Below are positions 4,260 through 45,490 of a stretch of 53,505 nt of DNA, piece after piece. The notes under the pieces are model-generated. The model had not been told where the DNA came from. It did no database searches and saw nothing but the letters and a program-made list of their open reading frames with translations. Source of the DNA: Acidobacterium sp. (GTDB lineage Bacteria > Acidobacteriota > Terriglobia > Terriglobales > Acidobacteriaceae); assembly GCA_003167515.1 (NCBI GenBank), contig PMSS01000484.1:12780-66284 (forward strand). The letters are read 5' to 3'. The position numbers and the translations under genes were made by a program. Position 1 is the first letter of the stretch. Each line of letters begins with the position of its first letter.

Positions 4260-4455
4260 GAACCCTCGGGGCGGATCGCGTGCCCTTCCGAGAACTCAAT
4301 TAAGACCACTTTCTAAGCAACAAGTGCGGGTATCGCGGCACCGGAGTCCCCGGAGCCAAAGGGATACCGAAAGCTGACATTAGAGGGCAATGGCTCCGGC
4401 AGATGCGGAGACCATTCCCGCATCGGGCGCCACGGGGCTCGGCATTGGAATCCGC

Positions 4456-5142
4456 ATGGTTTCTTTGGGCAACAGTATTCCGGCTCCAATCAGGATCCTG
4501 ATCGCCGACGATCACCCACTTTTTCGCGACGGCCTTCGCCGACTACTGCAATCGCAGCCCGGGTTCGAGGTGGTGGGGGAAGCCTCGGACGGGGACGTGC
4601 TGGTGGACTTGACGCGGACTACCAGGCCCGACATTCTCCTGCTCGACCTGTCGATGCCGCGTCGCGACGGCATGGAGGTTTTGCGGGAACTCCTGGCCAG
4701 CAGGCTTCCGGTCCGAACCTTGTTGCTGACGGCATCTATCGAAAAGGCCCAGATCGTTCAGGCTCTGAAACTTGGAGCGTACGGCGTGATCATGAAAGAG
4801 TCGACCACGCAGCGGCTTTTTGACAGCATCCACTGCGTAATGGCCGGTCAATACTGGGTGGGGCGCGAGAGCATCACCGACCTGGTCAGGGCGCTGCGCA
4901 GTGTGGCGCCCGCCGATGACGGAATCGGACGCCGCGATTACGGCCTGACGGCTCGGGAGATCGAGATCGTTACCCTGGTGGTTGCGGGATATTCGAATCC
5001 CGATATAGCGCAGAGATGCGTGATCAGCGAGCAGACCGTGAAGCACCATATCAGCAACGTGTTTGACAAGCTGGGGGTCTCGAACCGGCTCGAGCTCGCC
5101 CTGTTTGCGGTCAATCATCGGCTGACGGCGGTGGCTTCCTGA
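4456..5142 (+). CDS. two-component response regulator, NarL/FixJ (LuxR-type HTH) family
   Basis: Receiver motifs are IRILIADDHPLF, ILLLDLSMP (phospho-acceptor Asp), LLLTAS and GVIMKES. The C-terminal LuxR HTH reads LTAREIEIVTLVVAGYSNPDIAQRCVISEQTVKHHISNVFDKLGV. The track ORF starts at 4390; the internal ATG at 4456 (MVSLGNSIPAPIRILIADDH) gives the usual receiver N-terminus. Confidence 0.9.
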   Translation: MVSLGNSIPAPIRILIADDHPLFRDGLRRLLQSQPGFEVVGEASDGDVLVDLTRTTRPDILLLDLSMPRRDGMEVLRELLASRLPVRTLLLTASIEKAQIVQALKLGAYGVIMKESTTQRLFDSIHCVMAGQYWVGRESITDLVRALRSVAPADDGIGRRDYGLTAREIEIVTLVVAGYSNPDIAQRCVISEQTVKHHISNVFDKLGVSNRLELALFAVNHRLTAVAS

Positions 5143-5822: not shown

Positions 5823-5972
5823 CAGGCGTTGCAGGCGAAATGCACTCCGAGTCGAAAGCTCGGCGCCGATGCCTGGGGTTTAGAATCTGACTGTGGAAAA
5901 AGAGCTCCTGTAGCTCACAGGGCGGAGCTGTACACACTTTCGCAATACGAGGGAGACGGAGCACTGAGCAGA

Positions 5973-6581
5973 ATGATGCCTCTGACGATCGCGAATGCCG
6001 AAACCGTGGACCGGCCAGTCTGGTGGGCGCTTTACACGCGACACCAGCACGAGAAGGCTGTGGCGGAGATGCTGTTGTGCAAGGGGCTCGAAGTTTTCCT
6101 GCCGCTCCATGAATCGATGCGGAGGTGGAAGGACCGGCAAAAGCTCCTGTCGCTGCCGCTGTTTCCCGGTTATGTCTTTGTGCAGGGCAATCTCAGCCGT
6201 AGACTTCAGGTCCTGACGACGCCGGGAGTGCACATGATCCTGTCGCGAGGGGAGCAGATCGCGGTCGTTCCGGACGACGAAATTCTGGCCATTCGGCGCG
6301 CGGTGGAAGGATCTTATCGGATTGAGCCCCATCCGTTTCTGAAGTGTGGCGAGCGGGTGCGGGTGACGCGAGGTTCGCTCGAAGGCGTGGAAGGGATTCT
6401 GGTGCGCAAGAAGAACCTCTATCGTTTGGTGCTGTCGGTGGATATGCTGGCGCGATCGGTGGGCGTGGAAGTCGATGCTTCCGATGTAGAGCCGGTTGCA
6501 GGGGAGAGCTCCCGAGAGGCATTATTCGGCCGTGCGCCCGTGGGGGAGGAGCGATTCAAAGAGGCGCCGCCGCCCGCATAG
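5973..6581 (+). CDS. NusG-family transcription antiterminator paralog (UpxY/RfaH-like)
   Basis: WWALYTRHQHEKAVAEMLLCKGLEVFLPLHESMRRWKDRQKLLSLPLFPGYVFV is the NGN domain pattern of the specialised NusG paralogs that head polysaccharide operons. A KOW-like segment follows (GERVRVTRGSLEGVEGILVRKKNLYRLVLSVD). The track ORF starts at TTG 5829; ATG 5973 (GGAG 11 nt upstream) gives a normal-length protein. Confidence 0.8.
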   Translation: MMPLTIANAETVDRPVWWALYTRHQHEKAVAEMLLCKGLEVFLPLHESMRRWKDRQKLLSLPLFPGYVFVQGNLSRRLQVLTTPGVHMILSRGEQIAVVPDDEILAIRRAVEGSYRIEPHPFLKCGERVRVTRGSLEGVEGILVRKKNLYRLVLSVDMLARSVGVEVDASDVEPVAGESSREALFGRAPVGEERFKEAPPPA

Positions 6582-6605: not shown

Positions 6606-6769
6606 CAATTTGAGACGCTGCCCGATCTTAATGTGAGTTACCATGCAGGATAAGCAGTAGCAGAAGAAAGCAAGCGTCCGATCAGGCGGAATTTGGACCT
6701 CTGACGGCCCGGCGCGGCGCGGAAGTCAGAGAACCTGGAGGCCTGGAGTTGGTCTCAGAAGTCAGGCGT

Positions 6770-7426
6770 ATGAGCAGCAGAATGGATCGGGCAATTCTCG
6801 CGGGAGTCTTCCTGATGGGGTTGGCGGGCGGCGCATGGGCGCAGGCACCGGCGAGCAATGCGTCCCATCCGGGATCCGGGAAGCCCGGCGGAGCTGAGTC
6901 CGACCCCTCGATGGCGCAGGCTGGACGCGCACACAGCGACAATACCTATGTAATTGGGGCTGCCGATCAGCTGGAGATCAGCGTCTGGAAGGAGCTGGAA
7001 CTCAGTAAGACCGTTACGGTCCGGTCGGACGGAAAGATCTCGCTGCCCCTGGCGGGAGAGATTCAGGCGGCGGGCCTGACGCCGCTGCAACTGGAAGGGG
7101 ACATCGCCAACCGGCTGAGAAGCTTCATAACAGAGCCGGAAGTCACGGTAATCGTCCAGCAGATCAACAGCCAAAAGTACAATGTGATGGGCCAGGTGAT
7201 CCGGCCAGGCTCCTATCCGCTGACCATCACAACGACAGTGATGGACGCGATTGCAAATGCCGGGGGGTTCAAGGACTTCGCGAAGAAGAAAGACGTCCGC
7301 ATCCTGCGGGGTAAAGCGGATGGCACAGAAACACGGTTAAAATTTAATTACGATGCCTTCGTCAAGGGCAAGAATCCCCAGACAAATATAAAGCTGCAGC
7401 CCGGCGACACAATCGTCGTAAACTGA
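6770..7426 (+). CDS. polysaccharide export protein, Wza/Poly_export + SLBB family (periplasmic/outer-membrane exporter)
   Basis: Signal peptide (AILAGVFLMGLAGGAWAQ). Poly_export motif YVIGAADQLEISVWKELELSKTVTVRSDGKISLPLAGEIQAAGLTPLQLEGDIANRL and SLBB-like NVMGQVIRPGSYPL...TVMDAIANAGG...IKLQPGDTIVV. ATG at 6770; the track starts at TTG 6749. Confidence 0.9.
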   Translation: MSSRMDRAILAGVFLMGLAGGAWAQAPASNASHPGSGKPGGAESDPSMAQAGRAHSDNTYVIGAADQLEISVWKELELSKTVTVRSDGKISLPLAGEIQAAGLTPLQLEGDIANRLRSFITEPEVTVIVQQINSQKYNVMGQVIRPGSYPLTITTTVMDAIANAGGFKDFAKKKDVRILRGKADGTETRLKFNYDAFVKGKNPQTNIKLQPGDTIVVN

Positions 7427-7433
7427 GGCGGCC

Positions 7434-8816
7434 ATGATTGCTCGAATTCTGGTGATGATGGCGTTGGTGTGGGCGGCATCGGCGCCGGCCTGTTCTCAGA
7501 ACGGGGGGGCTCAGAACGGGGGATCTCAGAACGCGGCCCCGCCGGAAGCGGCTGCCGATCAGGGCGACGATGCGGCGATGGCTGCGCCGCCGTCGGCTGG
7601 TGGGATGGCGTTTTCGGCGAGAACGGGATCGGAAGAGCGATCGAATTACCTGAGCATCGGCGTTCTGGCCGGCGTTGGATACGATACAAACGTCTATTAC
7701 GGGGAGGGAATCGCGCCCGAGGCCGACGAGACGTATTCGATTCTGCCCACAGTGCAGATCGACCGAACCACCGAGCGGCTGCATGAGAACCTGTCGTACA
7801 ATCCGGGCTTTTTGTTCTACCAGAATGCGACGGTGCTCAACGAGGTGAGCGAGAACGCGACTGGGGAGATGGATTATCGGGTGAGCCCGCATTCGAATGT
7901 CAGTGTGTACGATTCATTTCTCAAGACCTCGAATGTCTTCAGCCAGCCTTATTCATTGTCGGGAGGAACGATATCGGGTTCACCGGGGACGCCGGGCGCG
8001 CTTGCGATCGCGCCATATGCGGATCAGATTCTCAATCACGGCGGGGGTCTCTACAGCTATCAGTTCAGCAAAGATGCGATGATTGGGGTGGGGGGCGGAG
8101 CATCGGAGCTGGATTACCCGAACAGCCGCGAGGCGGTGGGTCTCTATGACGCCAACACGTACAGCGGCAACGCCTTTTACAATCTGCGTCTTACCGGGCG
8201 CCAGTACATCGGGGTGACGGGAGACTATTTCAATATTACGGAGTCCGCGGTAACCGGGGGCGGTCGAACCCAGACGACGGCGGCATTACCTTTTTACACG
8301 TTTTATCCTCGAAAAAACATTTTCCTTTCGGTGTCAGGTGGGCCACAATATTACACTGCAACATTTCAGCCTGCTCCTCCCCTGAAAGGATGGGCTCCCA
8401 CAGTGATGGCCAGCGCGCACGCGGAAGTGGAGCGGGCGGCCTTTTCGGCAAGCTACCAGCGAACGGTGACAGCGGGCGGGGGTTTGCTGGGAGTATTTAC
8501 CACGAATGCCGGAAGCGCGGAATTCCGCCTGCAGCTGAGCCGCACCTGGGGGATTGGTTTCTCGGGCAGCTATACGAGCACGATCGCAGATGATGCAGGT
8601 CAGGTTGGGGTGTTAGCAGTGGCGGGAGAGAATGGGCACGTTGTCAGAGCGGCGGGTTCGGTGGCGCACAACCTGAGCCAGCGGGTGTCGGCGGAGGTGG
8701 GCTACGACTACCTGCGCCAGGACTACGCGGGAATTCCGGTCGTTGCCAACGCGCCCGACACGCAGCGGGTCTACGGAACGATCCTGTATCAGCTGAGAAG
8801 GCCGTTGGGGAGATAA
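7434..8816 (+). CDS. putative outer-membrane beta-barrel protein associated with the EPS export core
   Basis: Signal peptide MIARILVMMALVWAASAPA, then a low-complexity Q/N/G/A/P linker. The rest shows alternating-hydrophobicity strands rich in Y/G/S/T (GVGYDTNVYYG, SVYDSFLKTSNVFS, VGYDYLRQDY, YGTILYQL). Its position between the Wza-like and Wzz-like genes matches the uncharacterised barrel protein of PEP-CTERM-type EPS loci. Function is inferred. Confidence 0.55.
   Translation: MIARILVMMALVWAASAPACSQNGGAQNGGSQNAAPPEAAADQGDDAAMAAPPSAGGMAFSARTGSEERSNYLSIGVLAGVGYDTNVYYGEGIAPEADETYSILPTVQIDRTTERLHENLSYNPGFLFYQNATVLNEVSENATGEMDYRVSPHSNVSVYDSFLKTSNVFSQPYSLSGGTISGSPGTPGALAIAPYADQILNHGGGLYSYQFSKDAMIGVGGGASELDYPNSREAVGLYDANTYSGNAFYNLRLTGRQYIGVTGDYFNITESAVTGGGRTQTTAALPFYTFYPRKNIFLSVSGGPQYYTATFQPAPPLKGWAPTVMASAHAEVERAAFSASYQRTVTAGGGLLGVFTTNAGSAEFRLQLSRTWGIGFSGSYTSTIADDAGQVGVLAVAGENGHVVRAAGSVAHNLSQRVSAEVGYDYLRQDYAGIPVVANAPDTQRVYGTILYQLRRPLGR
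7496..7540 (+). repeat. 3 x 15-nt imperfect tandem repeat (tcagaacgggg...) encoding QNGGA-QNGGS-QNAAP
   Basis: tcagaac recurs at 7496, 7511 and 7526, a 15-nt period. It lies inside the N-terminal linker of the beta-barrel protein. Confidence 0.85.
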
Positions 8817-8819
8817 GAG

Positions 8820-10421
8820 ATGCCGGAAGATCAGGAAATCGAGGGTGCGGAACAGCCGGATATCGGCCGCTATCTGGACGTCGCCCGGCGGCGGTACGTG
8901 CATTTTCTGATCCCGATGCTGATTGGCTTTCTGGCGGTGTGGGGAGCGAGCTGGCTGATCAAGGCGCGTTACAAGTCGACCACGGTGATCCTGGTCGAGC
9001 AACCGAGCATGCCGAAGAATTACGTGATGTCGAACGTGAGCGAAGATCTGCAGGACCAGCTGGAGAGCATCTCGGCGCAGATCATGAGCCGCACGCATCT
9101 GCTGGATATCATCAATAAGTACAACCTTTATTCCGACCCGAAAAAGAAGATGAGCGCGGACGACAAGGTTGCGGCCATGACCAAGGCCATCGACGTCCAG
9201 CTGGTTCACGACGATCGGGGAGGCGGGGGAATCACCTCTTTTTCGATCGGTTTTTCGGCTGCCACTCCGCAGGTGGCCCAGGAGATCACGAGGGAGCTGT
9301 CGACAGCGGTGATCAGCCAGAACCTGCAGGTTCGGCAGCAGGAGTCGAAGAGTACCACGGATTTCCTGAAACAGCAGCTGGAGACAGCGAGGCAGGCGCT
9401 CGCGGTTCAGGAAGCACAGAAAGAGCAGTATGAGGCGGCCCATCAGGGAGCGTTGCCAGAGCAGATGCAGGCGAATGTTCAGATTCTTACAGGGTTACAG
9501 CAGCAGCTGCAGAACGAGCAGGAGGCGCTCAACAGCGCGGTGAGCCAGCGGGCGTATTTCCAGACGCTGATCGAGCAATACCACGCCATGCGGGCGCCGG
9601 CGAAGACAGCGGACGGGACGACTCCGGCGGACGTCACAACCATCGACGCGACGCTTGAAAAAGACAGGGCTCAGCTGGCCGACCTGAGCGCGCGCTACAC
9701 GGACAGCTATCCGGACGTGCAGTCGCTCAAAACCGAGATCGCGCGGCTGGAGAAGGAGCACGACCGGGCGCTGGCGGCGGCCAGCTCCGCGAAGCCGAAG
9801 GCGAATGCGGACGCGAGCGATGACACCGCGGAGGGGCCGAATTCACCGGTGGCGCAGCTGCAGGGGCAGTTGCGGGCCACTCAGGTGGATATCGCCAACA
9901 AAGAGCAGAGCATTGCGCGGCTGAAGACCCAGATCGGCGAGTATCAGGCGCGGATTGGCGCGGAACCGGCGAGCGAGGAACGGCTGGCGGAGCTGAATCG
10001 GGGATACGATCAGTCCAAGGCCAACTACGATGAGCTGCTCAAGAAGACAGACGATTCGCAGATGGCGACCAGCATGGAACAGATGCAGGTGGGGGAGCGA
10101 TTCTCGGTTCTTGACCCGCCGAGCCTGCCCTCGAAGCCGGATTTTCCCAACCGACTGAAGTTCTGCGCGATGGGAATCGGAGCCGGCCTGGCACTGGGCA
10201 TCCTTGTCGTCGCGGGGTTCGAAATTGCGGATGACCGTCTTTACCGGGAAAAGGAGATCAAGGATCTGCTTCCGATCGCAATCTTTGCCGAGATTCCGGA
10301 GATCACGAGTCCCCTGGACGAACGGAGAAGCAAGCGAAAGGCATATCTGGGATTTGCAACCGCTGCCCTGGTCCTGTTTGTTATCCTGGCCAGCTCAGCG
10401 ATCAGCTATCTGCACAGTTAA
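8820..10421 (+). CDS. polysaccharide chain-length determinant protein (Wzz/GumC family, PCP)
   Basis: N-terminal TM plus Wzz motif (FLIPMLIGFLAVWGASWLIKARYKSTTVILVE). A long Q/E/A-rich coiled-coil periplasmic region follows. The C-terminal part has the proline-rich FSVLDPPSLPSKPDFPNRLKF motif and a second TM (GIGAGLALGILVVAGF). Confidence 0.85.
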   Translation: MPEDQEIEGAEQPDIGRYLDVARRRYVHFLIPMLIGFLAVWGASWLIKARYKSTTVILVEQPSMPKNYVMSNVSEDLQDQLESISAQIMSRTHLLDIINKYNLYSDPKKKMSADDKVAAMTKAIDVQLVHDDRGGGGITSFSIGFSAATPQVAQEITRELSTAVISQNLQVRQQESKSTTDFLKQQLETARQALAVQEAQKEQYEAAHQGALPEQMQANVQILTGLQQQLQNEQEALNSAVSQRAYFQTLIEQYHAMRAPAKTADGTTPADVTTIDATLEKDRAQLADLSARYTDSYPDVQSLKTEIARLEKEHDRALAAASSAKPKANADASDDTAEGPNSPVAQLQGQLRATQVDIANKEQSIARLKTQIGEYQARIGAEPASEERLAELNRGYDQSKANYDELLKKTDDSQMATSMEQMQVGERFSVLDPPSLPSKPDFPNRLKFCAMGIGAGLALGILVVAGFEIADDRLYREKEIKDLLPIAIFAEIPEITSPLDERRSKRKAYLGFATAALVLFVILASSAISYLHS

Positions 10422-10433
10422 TCATGGGTCGCA

Positions 10434-11423
10434 ATGTATAAAGCTTTTTTTAAGCTGGCGCGCAATCCGTTCGACCTGACTCCGGACCCCACCTATTTTG
10501 TGTCGACCCGCCGGCATAACGAAGCGCTGGCCGCGCTCCATTATGGTATCCGGCGACATAAGGGATTTGTAGTTGTGACCGGTGAAGTCGGAACGGGAAA
10601 GACACTGCTGCTAAGGTGCCTGCTTCGCCTGCTGAAGGAAAGCAAGGATATTGCCTATGCCTATCTCTTCAACAGCCGGCTTTCTCCAGCGGAGTTTCTG
10701 CAATACATTCTGTCTGATTTCGGGCTTCCCGCTTCCGGGAAGAACAAGAGCGAGTTGTTGCTGGACCTCGGTCAGTTCCTGGTGTCGCGCGGATCGAAAG
10801 GACTGACGACCGTTCTCATCGTGGACGAGGCACATCATCTGTCCGAGGAATTGCTCGAAGAGGTGCGCCTGTTGTCCAATCTGGAGACGACGGACGACAA
10901 ATTGCTGCAAATCGTACTCGTCGGCCAACCTGAACTGGATCAGAAGCTGGATTCGATCGGGCTGCGCCAGTTGAAACAGAGGATTGCCCTGCGCGCCCAG
11001 CTAGGTCCCCTGGATGCAAAGGAGACCAAGGAGTATATCGAACATCGGCTGCGCGTTGCCGGAGCTGAGGGGGAGCCCGACGAGTTGTTCGGTCCCGAGG
11101 TCATTGAGGCGGTTTATCGTCACTCTCGGGGATTTCCGCGGCTCATCAATACGGTCTGCGAAAACGCGTTGATCATTGCTTACGCGCGGCAATTACCCAA
11201 AGTGACCGCGGATGTTGTGGAAGACGTAGCAAAAGAGTTTCGCCTCGATACAGCCTTCTTCAGCGATCCTGAAGGCAGCGGAACTCACGGCGAGATGGAC
11301 GTCCGCCAAGCGGCGAATGTCCTTCGCGATCTTTATTCGGCACTGCGCAAGCCGGTGTCGCGCAGTGCCGATTTGAATCTGCCTGTTTCTCTCAAAGCGA
11401 GTGAGTATGAGCCGAATATTTGA
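10434..11423 (+). CDS. ExeA/GspA-like AAA ATPase (secretion-ATPase type found in PEP-CTERM EPS loci)
   Basis: MYKAFFKLARNPFDLTPDPTYFVSTRRHNEALAALHYGIRRHKGFVVVTGEVGTGKTLLLRCLL is the characteristic ExeA N-terminus with a Walker A. Walker B is LIVDEAHHL. No peptidoglycan-binding C-terminal domain is visible. Confidence 0.85.
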   Translation: MYKAFFKLARNPFDLTPDPTYFVSTRRHNEALAALHYGIRRHKGFVVVTGEVGTGKTLLLRCLLRLLKESKDIAYAYLFNSRLSPAEFLQYILSDFGLPASGKNKSELLLDLGQFLVSRGSKGLTTVLIVDEAHHLSEELLEEVRLLSNLETTDDKLLQIVLVGQPELDQKLDSIGLRQLKQRIALRAQLGPLDAKETKEYIEHRLRVAGAEGEPDELFGPEVIEAVYRHSRGFPRLINTVCENALIIAYARQLPKVTADVVEDVAKEFRLDTAFFSDPEGSGTHGEMDVRQAANVLRDLYSALRKPVSRSADLNLPVSLKASEYEPNI

Positions 11424-12414
11424 CGCTCTGCAAAGATCGGAAGCTGAAAGATCAGGACGTAAATTAACTTCGGCTTCGGACGCGACCGAGCTGCTGCGCC
11501 ATGCTGAGCATCGGGCGGTGTCGGAATGGGAAGCGGGTGCTCCAGCGGAACGGGAATCCGCAGCAGCGCCGGAGCATGAGGTTGCTCGGAACGGAAAAAC
11601 CGCCTCTCTCGACGGCGCGGCGCCGGTGAAGGCCAATGGCGCTAAGAGTAAAGCCTCCGCCGTCGCTGAAGAGGCTGTTCCCCGCGAACTTCCTGAGATC
11701 TTCAGGCAGTTTAAGAAGTTGAGGATTTCTGCTCCTGCCCAGGGCCGGCTGGTGAGCGTTTCAGACAGGGACAGTCCGGCAGCAGAGGCCTTTCGGCTGC
11801 TGGCCGTGCGTTTGCGGCATCTCCGCCGCGATCGCCCGCTCAAAAAGCTTCTGATCACCAGTTCGAGTCCTCAGGAAGGGAAGAGCACATGCTCCGCAAA
11901 CCTGGCGTGCTCCCTGGCGCTTCGGGTTCAGCAGAGGGTTCTGCTGGTCGAAGGCGACATCCGGCGGCCGTCTCTGTCGCAGATGTTCACACTCTCGCCG
12001 AGGCCCGGAATCTGTGAATGGCTGCGGGAAGAACGGCAGCTGGAAGACTGCATCTACTTCCTCGAAGGTCCGGGTCTCTGGTTTATGCCTGCAGGTAGTT
12101 CGCCCAGCAATCCGCTGGAGGTATTGCAGTCCGGAAGGCCGGCGATTCTCCTCGAACAGCTGACTGGCCTGTTCGACTGGATCATCGTCGATTCGCCTCC
12201 GGTCCTGCCCCTGGCCGACACAAGCGTCTGGTCGCGTCTGGCCGATGGGATCCTTCTTGTGGTGCGTCAGGGAACTTCTGAGAAACGGAAGTTACGGAGA
12301 ACGGTGGATGCAATCGAGTCACAAAAACTGATCGGCGCGTTGCTGAACTCCTCCAAAAATGCCCCGGACGCCGATTATTACTACAGCCCGCGGCCGAGTC
12401 CAGGACCGGATTAA
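11407..12414 (+). CDS. cytosolic tyrosine autokinase (BY-kinase, CpsD/CapB-type, no transmembrane domain)
   Basis: Walker A (SSSPQEGKST), Walker A' (VLLVEGDIRRPS) and Walker B (WIIVDSPPVLP). The C-terminal Tyr cluster is DADYYYSPRP. The N-terminus MSRIFDALQRSE is typical of the kinase in exosortase-type EPS loci. The gene overlaps the ATPase gene by 17 nt; the track start is GTG 11401. Confidence 0.85.
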   Translation: MSRIFDALQRSEAERSGRKLTSASDATELLRHAEHRAVSEWEAGAPAERESAAAPEHEVARNGKTASLDGAAPVKANGAKSKASAVAEEAVPRELPEIFRQFKKLRISAPAQGRLVSVSDRDSPAAEAFRLLAVRLRHLRRDRPLKKLLITSSSPQEGKSTCSANLACSLALRVQQRVLLVEGDIRRPSLSQMFTLSPRPGICEWLREERQLEDCIYFLEGPGLWFMPAGSSPSNPLEVLQSGRPAILLEQLTGLFDWIIVDSPPVLPLADTSVWSRLADGILLVVRQGTSEKRKLRRTVDAIESQKLIGALLNSSKNAPDADYYYSPRPSPGPD

Positions 12415-12582
12415 CGTCCACGCGGCACCGTGTGGTTGTCCCGCCGACCCCGATTCAGGATGAACGGCCGGCGAAAAGAGAAACTCGAATTTACAAACAT
12501 TCATGGTAAGTTCAGAAAACACATCTGACTATTTTGCGTCCGCCGTTCGACCATTCGGTAATGCTCGAGAGAGGAGCGAGTT

Positions 12583-13731
12583 GTGACTCTGCCAAGGATC
12601 AATAAGTTATCAGATATGGTGGATCCTGTATTCGATGCGGCTGCCCATGGGGATCGCGAGGTTCTGAGCGAAGAGGCCTTCAGGCGGCGGATCGCGATCG
12701 AGCGAAAGCGCACGGAACGGTCGAGAGAACCGTTTCTGTTGATGCTGCTCGAAGCGGGAGTTCCGCAGAACGGCGACAAGGCCGATAAGACGCTGGAGGG
12801 CATCGTGTCGGCGATGCGGTCATCCACTCGCGAGACCGATGTGGTTGGCTGGTATAAGGATCGCAGTACGGTCGGGGTGATGTTTACCGGGCTGGTGGTC
12901 AGCGATAAGAATTCAGTCCTGAGCACGATTCTCGGGAGAGTGAGCGCCGCGCTTCAGGAAGAAGTATCGATGGAGCGATTTAATCAGATTACTTTTTCGT
13001 TCCACTTCTTTCCCGATGACTGGGACGAGGGCAGTTCCGGCCGCCCCAGTGATCCGGTCCTCTACCCGGACCTATTCAGTCCCAGCAGAGACCAGCGCTC
13101 TCAGCTGCGCGCGAAGCGTGCAATGGATATTGCGGGAAGCACCCTGATGCTGATCGCATGCATGCCTCTGTTCGCCATCATCGCGCTTCTCATCCGGGCA
13201 ACCTCCAGAGGCCCGATCCTGTTCAGGCAGGATCGGATCGGGCAGTATGGCCGGCGCTTCACGTTTCTGAAATTTCGATCGATGCGTGTCGATAATGACG
13301 AGACGGTACACAAGGAATACGTAAAGCGGCTGATTGCCGGCGTCGCGGAGCGTGTGCCAGTCAATGCAGATGGGCAGGGCGTTTACAAGCTCGTGGGCGA
13401 TAAGAGAATTACGTCGATCGGAAAGTTCCTGCGCAAGACAAGCCTCGATGAGTTACCCCAGTTTCTGAATGTTCTGAGAGGCGATATGTCGTTGGTCGGC
13501 CCGCGGCCGCCGGTTCCTTACGAGTTGGCGGCTTATCAGACCTGGCACCGGCGGCGGGTGCTGCAGGTAAAGCCGGGAATAACCGGCTTGTGGCAGGTTA
13601 CCGGCCGCAGCCGCGTCAGGTTCGACGACATGGTCCGGCTCGATCTGCGCTATGCAATTTCCTGGTCGCCCTGGCTGGACGTGAAGATACTCATGAAAAC
13701 GCCGGCCGCGGTGATTAAGGGAGCTTATTGA
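12583..13731 (+). CDS. initiating polyprenyl-phosphate sugar-phosphate transferase (Bac_transf/WbaP-EpsB type) with an N-terminal degenerate GGDEF-like domain
   Basis: The C-terminal half is a canonical bacterial sugar transferase: [73 protein letters not shown] and [10 protein letters not shown]. The N-terminal roughly 165 aa are cytoplasmic and resemble a GGDEF fold (see findings). The GTG start at 12583 is preceded by GAGGAG. Confidence 0.9.
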
Positions 13732-13847: not shown

Positions 13848-14846
13848 GTGAACTTCGGTGTAATCGGGTACGGTTACTGGGGACCCAATGTAGTGAGGAA
13901 CCTTGCCAGTCTGGAGGGCTCCCAGGTCTTATCCATTGCGGAGCTGAATCCCGCTGCGCAGGCGCGCGCGCGGAAGGCGTATCCGGGGATTCGTGTGACT
14001 GCCGACACGTCGGAAGTGCTCACTTCGCCGGATATCGATGCCATCGCAGTGATCACTCCGGTGTGGACGCATTATGAGCTGGCGAAGGCGGCGCTCGAGA
14101 ACGGGAAACATGTTTTCGTGGAGAAGCCTTTCACCAGCAACGTGGCGCAGGGTGAGAAGCTGATCGATCTGGCAACACGAAAAAACCTGCGAATCATGGT
14201 GGATCACACGTTTCTGTTCACCGGCGCGGTGAGGAAGATCTCGCAGCAGCTGAGAGAAGGAACTCTGGGAAAGCTGTACTACTACGATTCCACTCGAGTG
14301 AATCTGGGACTGTTCCAGCATGACATCAACGTGCTGTGGGATCTTGCGCCGCACGATCTTTCCATCATGGATTACGTAATCGATGGGAATCCGGAGGCGG
14401 TGGTCGCGACCGGGCAAAGCCATCTGAACTGCCACGAAGATGTCGCATTCATGACCCTGTACTTTCCGGAGAGTGTCATCGCCCACATCAACGTGAACTG
14501 GCTTTCGCCGGTGAAAGTGCGCACCACCCTGATTGGCGGCGAAAAGCGGATGCTGGTGTGGAACGACCTCGAGGCCGACGAAAAGGTCAAAGTCTACGAC
14601 AAGGGCGTCAATATCACGAATAACGAAGGCCTCTATTCCCTGCTGGTAAATTATCGCTCCGGCGACATGTGGTCCCCGCAACTGGAGCAGGTTGAGGCGC
14701 TGCGGCAGGAATTGTCTTACTTTGTGGATTGTATTTCCACCGGGCAGGATCCTTTCAACGATGGATGCGCCGGCCTGAGGGTGGTCAAGATGCTCGAGGC
14801 GGCCAGCGAATCGATGAGCAAGAGAGGGTCTTTAGTCTATCTATGA
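13848..14846 (+). CDS. Gfo/Idh/MocA-family NAD(P)-dependent sugar-nucleotide oxidoreductase (WlbA/WbpB-like 3-dehydrogenase candidate)
   Basis: MNFGVIGYGYWGPNVVRNL Rossmann start and the EKPF motif (KHVFVEKPFTSN). Gene order is oxidoreductase, acetyltransferase, aminotransferase. GTG start. Confidence 0.8.
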   Translation: MNFGVIGYGYWGPNVVRNLASLEGSQVLSIAELNPAAQARARKAYPGIRVTADTSEVLTSPDIDAIAVITPVWTHYELAKAALENGKHVFVEKPFTSNVAQGEKLIDLATRKNLRIMVDHTFLFTGAVRKISQQLREGTLGKLYYYDSTRVNLGLFQHDINVLWDLAPHDLSIMDYVIDGNPEAVVATGQSHLNCHEDVAFMTLYFPESVIAHINVNWLSPVKVRTTLIGGEKRMLVWNDLEADEKVKVYDKGVNITNNEGLYSLLVNYRSGDMWSPQLEQVEALRQELSYFVDCISTGQDPFNDGCAGLRVVKMLEAASESMSKRGSLVYL

Positions 14847-15337
14847 TTCCCTGCAACTGTATTGCGGATGACGTAAAACTTGGCTCCAATGTACGGCTTT
14901 CAACGTTCATCAATTTGTATGGATGCCGGATTGGTGACGAGACCAAAATCGGCGCGTTTGTGGAGATCCAGAAGAACGCGAGCGTGGGGAAGCGGTGCAA
15001 GATATCGAGCCATACCTTCATCTGCGAAGGCGTGGTCATCGAGGACAACGTGTTTATCGGTCACGGGGTCACGTTCATCAATGACAGCTTCCCGCGAGCG
15101 ACGGCGCCCGCGGGCGCGCTGCAAACCGAGGCGGACTGGAAGGTCGAGCCAACGGTGATCAGGAGGGGCGCGGCGATCGGCTCCGGGGCCACCGTGCTTT
15201 CCAATGTGAGCGTTGGCGAGAACGCAATCGTCGGCGCCGGCAGTGTTGTAACCAAAGATGTCCCACCGCATGCGATCGTGGCCGGCAATCCGGCCAGGGT
15301 CCTGCGTTATCTCAAAGAGAATGAAGAGGGGCTATGA
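14843..15337 (+). CDS. hexapeptide-repeat (left-handed beta-helix) sugar N-acetyltransferase (WlbB/WbpD-like)
   Basis: Hexapeptide repeats run throughout (IGDETKIGAFVEI, VGKRCKISSHTFI, IEDNVFIGHGVTF, IGSGATVLSNVSVGENAIVGAGSVV) and the protein ends in GNPARV. The ATG at 14843 overlaps the upstream stop (ATGA). The longer track ORF from 14729 would overlap the previous gene. Confidence 0.8.
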   Translation: MIPCNCIADDVKLGSNVRLSTFINLYGCRIGDETKIGAFVEIQKNASVGKRCKISSHTFICEGVVIEDNVFIGHGVTFINDSFPRATAPAGALQTEADWKVEPTVIRRGAAIGSGATVLSNVSVGENAIVGAGSVVTKDVPPHAIVAGNPARVLRYLKENEEGL

Positions 15338-16581
15338 CCTACATCTCGAATGAAATACCCTTTCTTGACCTCGTAACTCCACATCTGGAAATGGAGGAGG
15401 AACTCACCGGGGTATTTAGACAGGCGTTGCGCACCGCCGGATTTATCGGCGGACCAATGGTCGAGGAGTTTGAGCGCGCCTTCGCATCGTTTTGCGAAAC
15501 CAGCTATGCGGTTGGCCTCAACAGCGGGACCGACGCGCTGCGCTTTGCCATCATGGCCTGCGGAATTCAACCGGGCGACGTGGTGGTGACGGTGCCGCAC
15601 ACATTTATCGCCACGACGGAAGCGATCTCCCAGGCGGGAGCGATCGTCGAGTTTGTGGATATCGACGAGAACACGTACAACATGTCGGCCGAGAGGCTGC
15701 GGGTGTATCTGGAAGAAGAGTGCACGCGCGACCAGAAGGGGCGGCCCATCAGCCGGCGGAGCCAGCGCCCGGTGACGGCCGTTGTGCCTGTTCACCTGTA
15801 CGGGCAGATGGCGGACATGGATGCGATTCTCAGCCTGGCGAGCAAATACCAGCTGACCGTCATCGAAGACGCATGCCAGGCGCATGGCGCCGAGTACTTC
15901 TCCAGCAAGCTGAACCGCTGGATGAAGGCGGGAACGATGGGGCGCGCAGCGGCCTTCAGTTTCTATCCGGGCAAGAACCTCGGCGCCTGCGGCGAGGCCG
16001 GGGCGGCGACGACGAACGACCCCGATGTCGCGCGCACGATAAGAATGTTGCGCGATCACGGCCAGGCCAAGAAGTACCACCACGATATTGAGGGCTACAA
16101 CGGGCGGCTCGATGCCATTCAGGCTGGGCTGCTGCATGTGAAGCTGGCGCATCTGGCGACGTGGAATGCCCAGCGCCGCGATCGTGCCGCTGAATACGAC
16201 CGTCTCCTTCGAGGGAATGAAGCGGTGAAATGTCCCTTTGAGCCGTCGTGGTCGAAAGCCGTCTATCACCTGTATGTCATCCAGGTCGCCGATCGCGACG
16301 GGCTGATCAGCCATTTGAATGCGGCGGGGATCGGTTCGGGCGTTCATTACCCGGTTCCGCTGTATTTGCAGAAGGCCTACGCTGGCATGAACTACAGGGC
16401 AGAGGACTTTCCCGTGACCACGCGTGTGGCGTCGAGAATTCTGTCGCTGCCGATGTATCCGCAGCTGACGGCGGCGCAGCAGGCGCGCGTAGCCGAGGAG
16501 GTTCGGGCCTTTACGGCTAAGGCTTCGCGGCGGCCGGAGAAAGCGAAGAGCGCAGCCGTGCTGGCTGAAGTTGTCCGATGA
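15334..16581 (+). CDS. DegT/DnrJ/EryC1/StrS-family PLP-dependent sugar aminotransferase (WlbC/WbpE-like)
   Basis: IPFLDL...FIGGPMVEEFERAFASFCETSYAVGLNSGTDALRFAI...VPHTFIATTEAI, with FSFYPGKNLGACGEAG as the Lys-containing PLP region. ATGA overlaps at both ends. The 449-aa antisense ORF 15307..16656 is a shadow. Confidence 0.9.
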   Translation: MTYISNEIPFLDLVTPHLEMEEELTGVFRQALRTAGFIGGPMVEEFERAFASFCETSYAVGLNSGTDALRFAIMACGIQPGDVVVTVPHTFIATTEAISQAGAIVEFVDIDENTYNMSAERLRVYLEEECTRDQKGRPISRRSQRPVTAVVPVHLYGQMADMDAILSLASKYQLTVIEDACQAHGAEYFSSKLNRWMKAGTMGRAAAFSFYPGKNLGACGEAGAATTNDPDVARTIRMLRDHGQAKKYHHDIEGYNGRLDAIQAGLLHVKLAHLATWNAQRRDRAAEYDRLLRGNEAVKCPFEPSWSKAVYHLYVIQVADRDGLISHLNAAGIGSGVHYPVPLYLQKAYAGMNYRAEDFPVTTRVASRILSLPMYPQLTAAQQARVAEEVRAFTAKASRRPEKAKSAAVLAEVVR

Positions 16582-18057: not shown

Positions 18058-19512
18058 ATGCCTCCGTCTATAGCGCTAATATTGTGGTTCGTCTCCCTGG
18101 CGGCTCTGTTGTATTTCGACCCCGCCAATGACGCGAGGCTGTCGCCCGCGTCATGGGTGACGGTTGTCTGGCTGTTCATCGCCGGGACACGATTACCGTC
18201 GCAGTGGGTGGGTGGAGCCGGGTCGATGTCGGCAGCGGCGCTCGAGGACGGAAATCCGCTGGACCGGGGTATCTTCATACTCCTGATCCTGCTCTGCGTC
18301 GTAATCCTGATCTCAAGGTCATTCAACTGGAACGGCTTCTTCACGAGCAACCTGGCTTTGACGGCCTTTCTGGTCCTGGCACTGGTCAGCGCGTTTTGGT
18401 CGGACTTTCCCCTGATCGCCATCAAGCGATGGATTCGCGATTTTGGGACTTACCTGATCGTTCTGGTTGTGCTCTCCGATCCTCGACCGCTCGAGGCGGT
18501 GCGCGCGGTCCTTCGCCGGCTGAGTTATCTGCTGATCCCGCTGTCCATTCTGCTCGACAAATATTATCCGGAAGTCAGCAAGCAATACGATCCATGGACC
18601 GGCATTGGCTATTACGCCGGAGCCAGCACCAGCAAGAACATGCTTGGGCTCATGTGCCTGGTCAGCGGGCTGTTTTTCTTCTGGGACATCGTAACGCGGT
18701 GGCGGGACAGGAAGCAGCGGCGCGCGAAGCGGATCCTGCTGATCGACACAGCGTTTTTCGGGATGACAGTATGGCTGCTGCATACGGCTGAGAGCACGAC
18801 ATCGTATGTCTGCCTGGGGATTGGCTGCATAGTGCTGCTGCTGGCCAACGGTAAGATCTACCGGCGCCATCCGCGGCTGGTGCAGATCCTGATCCCGTCG
18901 TTATTCTGCGCTTATCTGATCCTGGACTTTGGGCTGGGCATGAATGGCTCCCTTGCGCAGGCAGTCGGGAAGAACGCGACGCTGAGCGACCGAACCAAAA
19001 TCTGGGCCTTCCTCCTCAGCATGCATACGAACCCGGTGATTGGCACCGGGTACCAGAGTTTCTGGCTCGGCTGGCGCCTCGACTGGGTGTGGACCAGGTC
19101 CGGACTCGGCCATCTCAATGAGGCGCACAATGGCTATCTTGAGGTTTACCTCGAAGAAGGTCTGGTCGGGGTTACGGTGCTCGCGGTTTTTCTGGCGGCA
19201 AGCTATTACGGTATCTGCAAGCGATTAAAGAGATCTTCCAGTCTGGCCGTGCTGGGTATGGCGGTATGGATCGCTTTTTTGTTTTACAACATGTCTGAGG
19301 CCGCCTTTGAAAGTGGCTTGTTCTACGCGATGTTCCTGCTGGGAGTGGTGACACTTCCGCAGCGCTCCGGAAAGCGAGTCAAGGAGGCCGCTGCATTCGA
19401 CACCGCGAAAGCAGAAACATTGGTACCCACACTCGCGGCGAAGACGGCAAGCGCGCGAACCACGAAGTGGCTGGCGCGCGGTAACCCACCTGAGATCAGG
19501 AACCGTTCATAA
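18058..19512 (+). CDS. O-antigen ligase/polymerase-like membrane protein (Wzy_C domain)
   Basis: About 10 or more hydrophobic segments. The characteristic periplasmic-loop motif is GLGHLNEAHNGYLEVYLEEGLVGVTVLAVFL. Confidence 0.8.
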   Translation: MPPSIALILWFVSLAALLYFDPANDARLSPASWVTVVWLFIAGTRLPSQWVGGAGSMSAAALEDGNPLDRGIFILLILLCVVILISRSFNWNGFFTSNLALTAFLVLALVSAFWSDFPLIAIKRWIRDFGTYLIVLVVLSDPRPLEAVRAVLRRLSYLLIPLSILLDKYYPEVSKQYDPWTGIGYYAGASTSKNMLGLMCLVSGLFFFWDIVTRWRDRKQRRAKRILLIDTAFFGMTVWLLHTAESTTSYVCLGIGCIVLLLANGKIYRRHPRLVQILIPSLFCAYLILDFGLGMNGSLAQAVGKNATLSDRTKIWAFLLSMHTNPVIGTGYQSFWLGWRLDWVWTRSGLGHLNEAHNGYLEVYLEEGLVGVTVLAVFLAASYYGICKRLKRSSSLAVLGMAVWIAFLFYNMSEAAFESGLFYAMFLLGVVTLPQRSGKRVKEAAAFDTAKAETLVPTLAAKTASARTTKWLARGNPPEIRNRS

Positions 19513-19565: not shown

Positions 19566-20459
19566 ATGGATATCTGTGGCAAGGACGGCATGATCGAGGG
19601 AAGGCTGGTGCGTATTGCCCGCCTCGATGCGGAAGGGTTCGATTTTGTGGAGGACCCGGAGGCGGCATTGTCCGCTGTCCGGAAGTCCCGATCGCGTGCC
19701 GACCTGTTTACGTTTACCCAGAGGCTTTCGAATACCACGCCGCAGTACAGCTATCCGATGGAGTGGGACAACATGGCGGCGCTCCGTGTAACCACCTTCG
19801 ATGACTGGATGACGAATCAGCTCGATTTCAAGGCCAGGAACAAAGTTCGAAAGGCCGGGAAAAACGGCGTGGTGGTGCGGGAAGTTTCTTTCAACGACGA
19901 ACTGATCAGGGAGATCTCCGCCATTTACAACGAGTGTCCGATTCGCCAGGGAAAGCCGTTCTGGCATTATGGCAAGGATCTTGAAGCGGTGCGTAGGGTA
20001 AACGAGACCTTTCTGGACCGGAGCGTCTTTATCGGCGCCTCGTGTGAGGGCCGGATGATTGGCTTCGTAAAGCTCGTGATGGACGAGGAAGGAAGCCAGG
20101 CGGGCCTGATGCAGATTGTTTCGATGGTCGGTCAACGGGACAAGGCGCCGAACAATTCCCTGATTGCCCAGGCAGTGCGATCCTGCGCGGATCGGAAGAT
20201 TTCGCACCTGTGGTACGCGAAGTTTTCGTATGGCAAGAAGCAGCGGGACAGTCTGGCTGACTTCAAGGCGAACAATGGCTTTACGAAAGTCGACGTTCCC
20301 AGGTACTACATCCCTTTGACGGTCGCGGGACGGGTCGCGCTCCGTTTCGGTCTGCATCGTACGGCTGCGGACTGGGTTCCCGAGCCGGTCGCAGCGACGT
20401 ACAGAAAACTTCGCAACAGCTGGTATGAGACAAGACACCGCGGTTTTGAGAGTGCTTAG
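19566..20459 (+). CDS. GNAT-fold FemAB/CelD-like acyl- or aminoacyl-transferase
   Basis: FKARNKVRKAGKNGVVVREV...IGFVKLVMDEEGSQAGLMQIVSM...NNSLIAQAVRSCADRKISHLWY...LADFKANNGF matches by eye the FemAB-like/Acetyltransf_6 pattern seen next to AsnB-like genes in EPS loci. The 418-aa antisense ORF 19323..20579 is R/P/G-rich junk. Confidence 0.5.
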   Translation: MDICGKDGMIEGRLVRIARLDAEGFDFVEDPEAALSAVRKSRSRADLFTFTQRLSNTTPQYSYPMEWDNMAALRVTTFDDWMTNQLDFKARNKVRKAGKNGVVVREVSFNDELIREISAIYNECPIRQGKPFWHYGKDLEAVRRVNETFLDRSVFIGASCEGRMIGFVKLVMDEEGSQAGLMQIVSMVGQRDKAPNNSLIAQAVRSCADRKISHLWYAKFSYGKKQRDSLADFKANNGFTKVDVPRYYIPLTVAGRVALRFGLHRTAADWVPEPVAATYRKLRNSWYETRHRGFESA

Positions 20460-20603: not shown

Positions 20604-22481
20604 ATGCCAGGAATTGTGGGATGCATCACGCGCCGGCCGCGGGCATTGGCGGAAGCCGAAGTACGGCGCATGACCGACGCTCTGCTGCATGAGCGTTCGT
20701 ATGTGTCGGGTACGTGGGCCGAGGAGCCGCTGGGCGTGTACGTGGGATGGGCGGCGCGGAAGGGCTCTTTCTCCGATCGGATGCCGCTGCGAAATGAAGC
20801 GGGCGACGTGACGCTGGCGTTTGCCGGCGAGGAGTTTCCGGAGCCGGACGTGGCGCAGCGTCTGAAGGAGCGAGGACACGCCGTCGACCTTGAAGGGCCA
20901 TCGTACCTGGTGCATCTTTATGAAGAGGATCCGTCCTTTCCAGCAGGCCTGAACGGGAGATTCCACGGCTTGCTGACCGACAGGAACCGTGGCGAGGCCA
21001 TCCTCTTCAATGATCGCTTCGGGATGCACCGGATCTACTACCACGAGACGAAGGATGCATTCTATTTCGCAGCCGAGGCAAAGGCGATCCTGGCAGTGCG
21101 GTCCGAACTGAGGCGGGTGGATTACCAGGGCCTGGGAGAATTTGTTTCCTGTGGCGCAGTGCTCGAGAACAGGACGCTTTTCGAAGGCATCCAGGTGCTG
21201 CCTCCCGGTTCGGCATGGAAGTTTCGCAACGGATTCCTCGAGCGGAAGAGCAGCTATTTCGAACCGAGGGAGTGGGAGGATCAGGAAGCCCTCGATCCGG
21301 AAGCCTGGTATCAGGAGCTCCGATCGGCATTCACGCGCAACCTTCCGCGGTACTTCGCCGGGCGTGAGCAGATTGGAATGTCGCTGACCGGCGGCCTGGA
21401 CACGCGGATGGTTCTGGCCTGCCGCGAACCAGCCCCCGGCTCGCTCCCCTGTTACACCTTTGGGAGCATGTTCGGCGAACATGAAGATCTCCGGATCGCG
21501 CGGCGCATCGCGGATATTTGCAGTCAGCCGCATCAGGTTCTTACCGCTGGAGAGGAGTTTCTCTCGCAGTTCCGGCATTACGCCGAGCGCGCCGTCTACC
21601 TCACCGATGGAGGCGTGGATGTAAGCCGATCTCCCGACCTCTATTTGAACGAGCAGGCGCGGGAGATTGCGCCCGCCAGAATGACGGGCCTCTATGGCGG
21701 AGAACTCCTGCGAGGCTTTCGCGCGTTCAAGCCGTCGGAACCTTCTGTGGATTTGTATAGCCCGGAATTCCTTTCCAGCATTCGCCGGACATCAACGACC
21801 TATGCAGGACTCCTTGACGGCAACCCGCTCTCTGCTGCCGCCTTCAGGCAAGGGCCCTGGTATCTGTACGGCTCGCTGTCGCTCGAGCAGACGCAGATCA
21901 CCATGCGGTCTCCCTTCCTGGACAATGACTTCGTCCGAACCGTTTTCCGCTCGCCGGCTTCGGCGCTGGGGAGCGACGATGTTTCGCTGCGGCTGATTGC
22001 CGACGGGAATCCCGCTCTGCGGGCCATTCCGACGGATCGGGGTGTAGGCGGCGATCGGGGAAAGATGTTGGGAGGGATTTCCCACGGCTGGCTCGAGTTT
22101 CTCTTCAAAGCGGAGTACGCCTACGACATGGGCATGCCGCAATGGCTGGCGCGTATCGATCATGCTTTTTCGGCGCTCCATCTGGAGCGGCTGTTCCTCG
22201 GCCGGCACAAGCCTTTTCATTTTCGTGTCTGGTACCGCGACGCTCTGGCCGGATACGTGCGGGAAATGCTGCTCGACGAGCGGGCGCTGTCGAGGCCTTA
22301 CATCGAGCGCAGGAATCTCGAGACGGTGGTTGAGGGTCACCTCAAAGGAAACCGGAACTTCACGGTCGAACTGCATAAGGTGCTGACCCTCGAACTGGTA
22401 CACCGCATTTTCCTTGATGGGCAGGACGCCGGGCGGTCGGGAGAATCCCTAGCCTCCGCGGTACCTGCTGCCGCCCTCTGA
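20604..22481 (+). CDS. asparagine-synthetase-family (AsnB-like) ATP-dependent amidoligase lacking the glutaminase nucleophile
   Basis: The N-terminus is MPGIVGC rather than MCGI. The NGEIYN motif is replaced by AGEEFP. The synthetase domain is retained with a variant PP-loop SLTGGLDT (nt 21381-21404). No upstream in-frame start is available. Confidence 0.8.
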   Translation: MPGIVGCITRRPRALAEAEVRRMTDALLHERSYVSGTWAEEPLGVYVGWAARKGSFSDRMPLRNEAGDVTLAFAGEEFPEPDVAQRLKERGHAVDLEGPSYLVHLYEEDPSFPAGLNGRFHGLLTDRNRGEAILFNDRFGMHRIYYHETKDAFYFAAEAKAILAVRSELRRVDYQGLGEFVSCGAVLENRTLFEGIQVLPPGSAWKFRNGFLERKSSYFEPREWEDQEALDPEAWYQELRSAFTRNLPRYFAGREQIGMSLTGGLDTRMVLACREPAPGSLPCYTFGSMFGEHEDLRIARRIADICSQPHQVLTAGEEFLSQFRHYAERAVYLTDGGVDVSRSPDLYLNEQAREIAPARMTGLYGGELLRGFRAFKPSEPSVDLYSPEFLSSIRRTSTTYAGLLDGNPLSAAAFRQGPWYLYGSLSLEQTQITMRSPFLDNDFVRTVFRSPASALGSDDVSLRLIADGNPALRAIPTDRGVGGDRGKMLGGISHGWLEFLFKAEYAYDMGMPQWLARIDHAFSALHLERLFLGRHKPFHFRVWYRDALAGYVREMLLDERALSRPYIERRNLETVVEGHLKGNRNFTVELHKVLTLELVHRIFLDGQDAGRSGESLASAVPAAAL

Positions 22482-45355: not shown

Positions 45356-45490
45356 GTCAATTGGCGATCACTGTGTCGCGATCGCGACTGAATGGTGTGG
45401 ACGATCGCATCTTCATCGTTGTCAGGCGAGGGCGTGAGCGTCACTGTTCAGAGAGATTCTCAGGTGGTTGGGTTCCGGAGATTAAATTCT

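Follow-up and report, generated by a model that had tools for sequence, protein, structure and literature searches.

A diverged GGDEF domain with a retained inhibitory-site motif, and so a candidate c-di-GMP receptor, fused to a phosphoglycosyl transferase in acidobacterial exopolysaccharide loci

PelD of Pseudomonas aeruginosa is a receptor with a degenerate GGDEF domain and an inhibitory site (I-site) for the second messenger cyclic di-GMP (c-di-GMP), and switches on exopolysaccharide synthesis. PssE of Listeria monocytogenes combines a degenerate GGDEF motif (DKDDA) with an RxxD sequence and takes up two c-di-GMP per protein with a Kd of 0.79 uM (PMC4125290), and in YdaK of Bacillus subtilis, where the degenerate motif reads SDERI, residues R202 and D205 are needed for function (PMC5422440). 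Both proteins bind c-di-GMP via the RxxD, and exopolysaccharide synthesis depends on both of them (PMC4125290, PMC5422440). In the diguanylate cyclase PleD, R359, D362 and R390 form the I-site together with R313 from helix alpha0 of a neighbouring domain, and in DgcR an alpha0 arginine is used likewise, the RxxD and the trans alpha0 arginine binding a c-di-GMP dimer which cross-links two GGDEF domains (PMC7288161, PMC8041772). The GIL domain of BcsE, a c-di-GMP sensor in enterobacterial cellulose secretion, carries an I-site-like RxGD in a degenerate module of GGDEF type (PMC7439463). The gene considered here lies in a 53,505-nucleotide stretch of an Acidobacterium sp. genome (contig PMSS01000484.1; the whole stretch is called the window) and encodes a protein of 382 residues in which a very diverged relative of the GGDEF domain is fused to a phosphoglycosyl transferase (PGT). 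GGDEF* is used as shorthand for the degenerate, diverged GGDEF domain of this PGT fusion family.

GGDEF* shares with PssE, YdaK and PelD a GGDEF fold with a dead motif, here KDRST, an RxxD five residues upstream of it, a gene within an exopolysaccharide locus and a protein at the membrane, and by its dead motif, RxxD spacing and exopolysaccharide link it belongs, at the level of sequence, to the class of these three. The preliminary description, made from the letters of the DNA, had likened the combination of dead motif and RxxD to that of known receptors, and the likeness holds for PssE and extends to YdaK. In contrast to GGDEF*, which is fused to a priming PGT of Wzx/Wzy type, the known receptors are separate proteins with synthase-type (GT2, processive) partners. 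GGDEF* is also shorter, ending after beta4, and much more diverged, the window protein being without a Pfam match in this region; a GW[YF] motif and an invariant arginine-rich alpha0 come in addition, and ligand binding by the domain is a prediction. With the product-inhibition I-site of PleD, DgcR and WspR it has in common an RxxD equivalent to R359/D362, a basic residue on alpha3 and an R43 equivalent to R313; in contrast to those enzymes there is no catalysis to inhibit, cross-linking, if any, would regulate the attached transferase, and the equivalence to R390 is uncertain. BcsE is alike in having a degenerate GGDEF-type module with an I-site-like motif in a polysaccharide secretion setting, and unlike in that it is a soluble protein of several domains which partners a synthase system, without an enzyme fusion and with no detectable sequence relationship to GGDEF*.

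The reading favoured here, at somewhat better than even confidence, is that GGDEF* is a c-di-GMP receptor and that bridging of two copies would alter the attached priming PGT. Held with the same confidence, as part of that whole, is the assignment of the gene product as the PGT that initiates (primes) synthesis at an exopolysaccharide locus of Wzx/Wzy type, with kinship to XrtA/PEP-CTERM loci, in a bacterium of the Acidobacteriaceae. The parts of the gene are as follows.

12583 to 13731, plus strand: whole gene of the GGDEF*-PGT fusion, a 382-residue open reading frame with a GTG start
12583 to 12663, plus strand: N-terminal leader of residues 1-27, little conserved and predicted to be disordered, with a predicted local distance difference test score (pLDDT) of 31-41 in both models
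12664 to 13011, plus strand: GGDEF* core, residues 28-143, from the AlphaFold2 fold, Foldseek, HHalign and weak PF00990 matches in relatives
12700 to 12723, plus strand: arginine-rich end of helix alpha0, E40-R41-K42-R43-T44-E45-R46-S47, in which R43 aligns with PleD R313
12751 to 12753, plus strand: E57, the end of beta1, aligned by HHalign with the metal-binding D327 of PleD
12829 to 12840, plus strand: I-site motif R83-E-T-D86 in the loop just before beta2, aligned with PleD R359/D362
12856 to 12870, plus strand: K92-D93-R94-S95-T96, the hairpin of the former active site, standing where GG(D/E)EF falls in the HHalign register
12937 to 12939, plus strand: R119 on helix alpha3, a candidate equivalent of PleD R390 in an uncertain register, arginine or lysine in all 134 domains compared
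13009 to 13074, plus strand: linker FPDDWD...RPSxPxLYPDL, residues 143-164, conserved and of low confidence in the models
13114 to 13719, plus strand: Bac_transf catalytic domain (Pfam), residues 178-379, with the D289-E290 dyad at 13447-13452 and P307-R308-P309
13120 to 13203, plus strand: single hydrophobic helix from hydropathy, residues ~180-207, corresponding to the re-entrant membrane helix that monotopic PGTs typically have

A GAGGAG Shine-Dalgarno sequence can be read at 12571-12576, 6 bases 5' of the GTG start, and R83 and D86 are encoded by cgc at 12829-12831 and gat at 12838-12840.

That the N-terminus is a degenerate GGDEF-like domain had been proposed by eye, and a check of the predicted fold had been called for. 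An AlphaFold2 model of the domain, built on 69 homologues, has a pLDDT of ~85 over residues 28-145 and is composed of alpha0 (30-47), beta1 (51-57), an alpha helix (64-81), beta2 (87-91), beta3 (96-101), alpha3 (109-127) and beta4 (137-143), that is an alpha0-beta-alpha-beta-beta-alpha-beta arrangement with one long helix only between beta1 and beta2 and nothing past beta4. When it is compared with the PDB by Foldseek, GGDEF domains occupy all of the top 45 places (best E 2.5e-6; template-modelling score on the target up to 0.68), and generic ferredoxin folds enter the ranking at rank 46 onward. A profile of 214 family domains aligned by HHalign with a profile of 122 PleD-family GGDEF domains gives a probability of 73%, an E of 3.1e-5 and a score of 35.3 over 127 columns, and as 60 column-shuffled controls score 12.7 +/- 2.3 (maximum 21.8) and the reversed profile 17.2, the real score stands about 10 standard deviations above the shuffles. 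Scanned singly, 23 of 71 divergent relatives match the Pfam GGDEF family (PF00990) at E <= 1, the best at 3.8e-4, and besides Bac_transf this is the only family matched by more than two of the 71; one relative matches PelD_GGDEF, and the sole NCBIfam match of residues 1-171 of the window protein is a weak one (E = 0.1) to the SiaD diguanylate cyclase model. Because fold, profile-profile comparison and recurrent weak matches agree, we conclude that residues ~28-143 are genuinely homologous to GGDEF domains, though very diverged and cut short after beta4.

The register of the HHalign alignment, with PleD numbering checked against PDB 2wb4, reproduces the one first drawn by eye. R83 falls on PleD R359, D86 on D362 and K92-D93-R94-S95-T96 on G368-G369-E370-E371-F372, the spacing being R83-E-T-D86, five residues and then K92, and the placing of this motif stretch at nucleotides 12829-12870 was exact. 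E57 pairs with PleD D327 and K42-R43 with K312-R313, and a further 16-residue stretch of the window protein is aligned with KRATLGGDPVSALLID in the same profile-profile alignment. Of the PleD substrate and metal residues D327, N335, D344, K442 and R446, only the D327 position is kept, as E57 (D or E in 117 of 134 relatives); the FKxxND guanine-binding motif, which follows the D327 position in cyclases, is missing and the K442/R446 region is absent. Every element needed to make c-di-GMP is lost, namely GG(D/E)EF, the FKxxND contacts and the C-terminal helix with the phosphate-binding lysine and arginine. The bare RxxD is itself not significant, and a second, unconserved one (R153-P-S-D156) occurs in the same region; it is in register, fold and conservation, not in the motif, that the likeness goes beyond chance.

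Conservation was assessed over 134 domains, non-redundant at 70% identity. The former active-site hairpin, residues 92-96, is hypervariable, with column entropies of 2.2-3.2 bits, and R83 is arginine in 131 and D86 aspartate in 132 of the domains, which upholds the view that GGDEF has been replaced by KDRST while the RxxD is intact. Position 119 is arginine in 91 and lysine in 43, which accounts for all 134. Entropy falls below 0.5 bit in 15 columns only (F33, E40, R43, R46, S47, L53, L55, R83, T85, D86, G89, W90, G98, L124 and P144), and among 18 sequences that are only 28-43% identical the invariant residues are F33, E40, R43, R46, R83, D86, G89, W90, L124 and P144. The family consensus of the I-site motif is R[ED]TDxxGW[YF], and R..D..GW[YFH] is found in 350 of 361 domain instances; P144 and Y161 are the invariant residues of the linker, and among 47 homologues Y91 and Y161 vary little or not at all. 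A hypervariable hairpin beside fixed RxxD and alpha0 residues means that the active site evolves freely while the allosteric site is held, and the pattern reads as strong purifying selection on the RxxD, the alpha3 basic residue and the alpha0 arginines. The alignments show the conserved polar residues of the dead GGDEF domain to include those which in canonical domains bind c-di-GMP in cis (RxxD) and in trans (the alpha0 arginine).

The fusion is widespread. A survey of its spread had been suggested at the outset, and a pattern scan with one genome per GTDB species finds it at no fewer than 533 loci of species-representative genomes. Of these the best 80, to which all locus counts given out of 80 refer, are all from Acidobacteriota, mostly Acidobacteriaceae and Terracidiphilus, with Tunturiibacter psychrotolerans X4BP1 and T. 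lichenicola MP8S11 as cultured carriers; other source names are Bryobacteraceae, Candidatus Sulfotelmatobacter and Terriglobia. A search with the domain profile yields 2,281 cluster representatives (50% identity) at E <= 1e-3, 1,364 of them at E <= 1e-10. PGT motifs follow in the same reading frame in 75 of the 80 loci, and a protein of 370-395 residues is encoded in 74; in 74, too, the orthologues are of 381-384 residues with the same start. Taken together, fusion and surrounding exopolysaccharide locus are kept in 74-75 of the 80. The sources annotate the relatives only as 'sugar transferase', with a COG-style glycosyltransferase label, or as 'hypothetical protein'. The homologue protein listing comprised only proteins below ~310 residues, even for PleD (orthologues 454 residues), and was enriched in fragments and frameshifted calls, whose lengths are no guide to true architectures; the idea that the fusion is a gene-calling artefact, raised by many homologue matches of 150-300 residues, was rejected, these being fragments or frameshifts and the intact 382-residue fusion being present in genome loci. 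One family member (P0257) sits on a 2.5-kb contig labelled 'Nitrososphaerales archaeon', which is probably mis-binned because the family is otherwise acidobacterial.

Several relatives carry more than one copy of the domain or join it to other modules, the window protein having a single copy. Tandem GGDEF*-GGDEF*-PGT proteins occur with 628, 558 and 505 residues (P0121, P0151 and P0156), and both of their copies keep ER(K/R)RxERS and RxxDxxGWY. An amino-acid kinase and an ACT domain precede GGDEF*-PGT in proteins of 891-905 residues (L081, 9932-12607; L084, 9933-12614; P0135). We know of no described case in which an aspartokinase-like/ACT module is fused to a priming transferase. The 905-residue P0135 was considered as a possible mis-call and this was rejected, since the arrangement recurs as 891- and 893-residue genes on independent contigs. 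In the loci with the long AA_kinase-ACT-GGDEF*-PGT protein a standalone GGDEF* gene of 165-172 residues is also present (L081, 8001-8516; L084, 8001-8498), directly after the tyrosine-kinase-like gene, which is the position of the PGT in the window, and is followed by an ATP-grasp gene and then the long fusion. All GGDEF* copies, tandem and standalone included, keep the arginine-rich alpha0 and the RxxD. Such recurrent two-copy arrangements, tandem or standalone with fused, fit a unit which works as a pair.

In the favoured reading c-di-GMP would bind GGDEF* through the kept I-site residues, an intercalated c-di-GMP dimer linking the RxxD site of one domain with the alpha0 arginines of a second copy, and two N-terminal domains paired in this way would then alter how active the attached PGT is, or how it is assembled. 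For the window protein the second copy might come from another subunit; certain relatives might supply it through their other tandem copy, and further ones through a standalone gene. The sequence does not reveal the sign of the effect, but PelD, PssE and YdaK as analogues make activation at high c-di-GMP seem more likely than inhibition. The kept residues suggest, rather than prove, that c-di-GMP may directly control the first committed step of the exopolysaccharide pathway. A wider proposal is put forward tentatively and with rather more doubt: that c-di-GMP dimer bridging might gate the priming PGT of a Wzx/Wzy pathway and that the standalone, tandem and aspartokinase-ACT versions might form a modular regulatory system specific to Terriglobia. 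The observation made in the preliminary description holds, and its interpretation is partly supported: the structural claims are upheld, and the c-di-GMP function would follow from the kept residues by inference.

Several points weigh against the favoured reading. Residues 1-171 of the window protein have no GGDEF match in Pfam even at E <= 10, which was also the outcome of the model search that had been proposed for residues 1-170, and among PDB chain sequences no GGDEF was found by phmmer with the domain or by hmmsearch with the 69-sequence family profile, these searches returning PGT-helix matches plus noise only. The missing Pfam match of the window protein reflects divergence and not absence of homology; a domain without matches in Pfam or among PDB sequences is nevertheless very diverged, and so it may also have drifted in what it binds. 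Of a canonical GGDEF domain it lacks all that follows beta4. On alpha3, R119 would coincide with PleD R390 when counted from the helix start of the model, whereas HHalign pairs T115, not R119, with R390, the arginine or lysine at 119 standing four residues, or one helical turn, later. The invariant T85, G89, W90, E40, E45 and Y161 have no role in known I-sites and could mark another ligand or a protein interface. The catalytic half of the full-length AlphaFold model, thinly covered by the alignment, is of such low quality (pLDDT 35-60; predicted template-modelling score 0.43) that the model bears neither way on contact between the domains or their packing. Lastly, the window open reading frames contain no GGDEF, EAL or HD-GYP genes by Pfam, and neither the window nor any of 84 related loci gave a match when the PleD GGDEF domain was compared with them by tblastn; linkage of a cyclase gene to its receptor is not required.

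One alternative, which we hold to be unlikely while giving it real weight, is that GGDEF* is a ligand-free dimerisation or docking module, with the upstream tyrosine autokinase, the AAA_22 ATPase or the chain-length determinant as examples of a partner. In that case a protein-protein interface or a phospho-acceptor site would be formed by the conserved arginine, aspartate, tryptophan and tyrosine, and the domain would functionally replace the cytosolic dimerising domain of large PGTs such as WbaP. Tandem and standalone copies suit a domain acting in pairs, be there a ligand or none, Y91 and Y161 are near-invariant or invariant, and G89-W90, E40 and E45 are invariant without being I-site residues. 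Control at the PGT step has precedents, as CapM is reported to be activated by tyrosine phosphorylation and EpsZ by binding of a response regulator, EpsW~P, which promotes dimerisation (PMC12802240). A tyrosine-autokinase-like gene does adjoin the PGT gene in 72 of 80 loci, but tyrosine kinase adjacency is usual in any such locus and points to nothing specific. Moreover the invariant residues are the c-di-GMP binders of canonical domains, at positions which GGDEF domains in general do not structurally require, and no interface could be modelled.

That the remodelled I-site and alpha0 might instead hold another ligand, whether GTP, pGpG, another cyclic dinucleotide, (p)ppGpp, a nucleotide-sugar or a polyprenyl-phosphate intermediate, we regard as improbable. 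The divergence and truncation of the domain would allow it, as would the uncertain R390 equivalent and a motif more specific than RxxD, R[ED]TDxxGW[YF] with its invariant tryptophan; the relatives fused to an amino-acid kinase and a ligand-binding ACT domain point to metabolic inputs. Against GTP stands the destroyed GTP-binding active site, and to our knowledge all RxxD I-sites characterised so far bind c-di-GMP (PMC4125290, PMC5422440, PMC7288161). Very improbable indeed is a convergent or chance resemblance of an unrelated ferredoxin-like domain with a coincidental RxxD, for the absent Pfam and PDB sequence matches to GGDEF and the low information of RxxD, present a second time at residues 153-156, are set against 45 best fold matches that are all GGDEF before the first ferredoxin fold at rank 46, an HHalign score ~10 standard deviations above the shuffles in the expected register, and independent PF00990 matches in 23 of 71 relatives.

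The C-terminal half was described at the outset as Bac_transf, and Pfam (PF02397) matches residues 178-379 over the full model with E 3.2e-65 and 219.5 bits against a cut-off of 27. The sole hydropathy peak of the protein is centred on residues 189-205, and with one hydrophobic segment only, residues 1 to ~180 are soluble, as had been said of the first ~165. In a profile search of PDB sequences the hydrophobic helix is matched to the membrane helix at the N-terminus of PglC and WbaP, and D289, E290 and P307-R308-P309 are invariant in 47 homologues; the full Bac_transf match, re-entrant helix, dyad and PRP together make the C-terminal part an intact small monotopic PGT. The NCBIfam large-PGT models TIGR03025 (EPS_sugtrans, 277.9 bits against a 295.55 cut-off) and TIGR03013 (XrtA-system PGT, 141.3 against 393.35) both score below threshold, and are matched through their C-terminal ~200 positions only. 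In its catalytic domain, with the re-entrant helix, the Asp-Glu dyad and the PRP motif, the enzyme is like both small (PglC type) and large (WbaP, WcaJ, EpsZ) PGTs. Unlike the large enzymes, the window PGT has no N-terminal transmembrane bundle or CoA_binding_3-like domain, and its accessory domain is instead a GGDEF relative.

The fusion had been thought undescribed for PGTs, and this stands as far as the literature searched extends, in which no GGDEF-PGT fusion is described and 'degenerate GGDEF' with 'sugar transferase' returns none, the fusion survey of O'Toole 2021 in PNAS lying outside that search. Small-PGT fusions that are named with citation of that survey are sugar-modifying and receiver-domain ones, not GGDEF (PMC12802240), a 2024 PNAS survey of monotopic PGTs mentions neither a GGDEF fusion nor c-di-GMP, and the literature search on Acidobacteria with c-di-GMP and exopolysaccharide found nothing. 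Knowledge of post-translational control in Wzx/Wzy-dependent pathways is described as incomplete, and only synthase-dependent systems are listed as being under well-established c-di-GMP control (PMC12802240). A PGT with a built-in I-site receptor would, if true, place the commitment of scarce undecaprenyl phosphate under direct second-messenger control, and no earlier example would exist in which a second messenger acts on the committed, undecaprenyl-phosphate-consuming step and not on a synthase or transcription factor. The protein is widespread in the Acidobacteriaceae, a dominant and genetically little-studied soil group, and exopolysaccharides matter for soil aggregation and desiccation tolerance. 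There is also an annotation gap, in that the N-terminal domain of the window protein is without a significant Pfam or NCBIfam model and surveys of PGT fusions by domain models would miss GGDEF*.

The surrounding locus is of exopolysaccharide type, and the genes that bear on its assignment are these.

6749 to 12414, plus strand: conserved upstream gene block (Pfam, NCBIfam), its order kept in 61-72 of 80 related loci
6749 to 7426, plus strand: polysaccharide export protein
7434 to 8816, plus strand: 460-residue protein without a Pfam or NCBIfam match, between the export protein and the chain-length determinant
8820 to 10421, plus strand: chain-length determinant
10434 to 11423, plus strand: AAA_22 ATPase
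11401 to 12414, plus strand: tyrosine-autokinase-like protein, adjoining the PGT gene
13848 to 16581, plus strand: GFO/IDH/MocA sugar 3-dehydrogenase-like protein, hexapeptide acetyltransferase and DegT aminotransferase, downstream of the PGT gene and found in 69-75 of 80 loci
18058 to 19512: Wzy_C polymerase-like protein (Pfam)
39417 to 40880: Wzx-type flippase (Pfam)

The order of export protein, 460-residue protein, chain-length determinant, AAA_22 ATPase, kinase-like protein, PGT and downstream trio is kept widely, each being found in 61-75 of 80 loci; the 460-residue protein is in the same position in 62 of the 80, and also in L081, L082 and L084. The dehydrogenase, acetyltransferase and aminotransferase indicate the acetamido-sugar branch of a nucleotide-sugar pathway. 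Since the window holds a Wzy-like polymerase and a Wzx-type flippase, the pathway is Wzx/Wzy-dependent. In NCBIfam the upstream genes match four XrtA/PEP-CTERM-system families best, all below cut-offs, and no exosortase was identified among the window open reading frames scanned with Pfam. Two asparagine-synthase-like amidotransferase genes, typical companions of PEP-CTERM-type exopolysaccharide loci, lie inside the locus at 20604-22481 and 31431-33332, the first being much more diverged.

Just 5' of the polysaccharide locus are a NarL/LuxR-type response regulator (4390-5142) and an UpxY/RfaH-family transcription antiterminator (5829-6581), which suggests operon-specific antitermination; the L081 and L084 loci have a sigma54-type response regulator instead, and L084 also a NusG-family gene. 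Further upstream, a 683-residue protein (2032-4083) with repeated ASH / Cep192-like / DUF1573 Ig-like domains is probably secreted or at the surface. Open reading frames without a Pfam match stand in or at the edge of the locus at 19566-20459 (297 residues), 22760-24295 (511 residues) and 45392-47473 (693 residues). A DUF4910/DUF2172/HTH_47 protein at 33924-35252 stands amid C-methyltransferase, PIG-L deacetylase, pyruvyl transferase and CheR-like methyltransferase genes, and these sugar-modification genes point to a heavily decorated polysaccharide.

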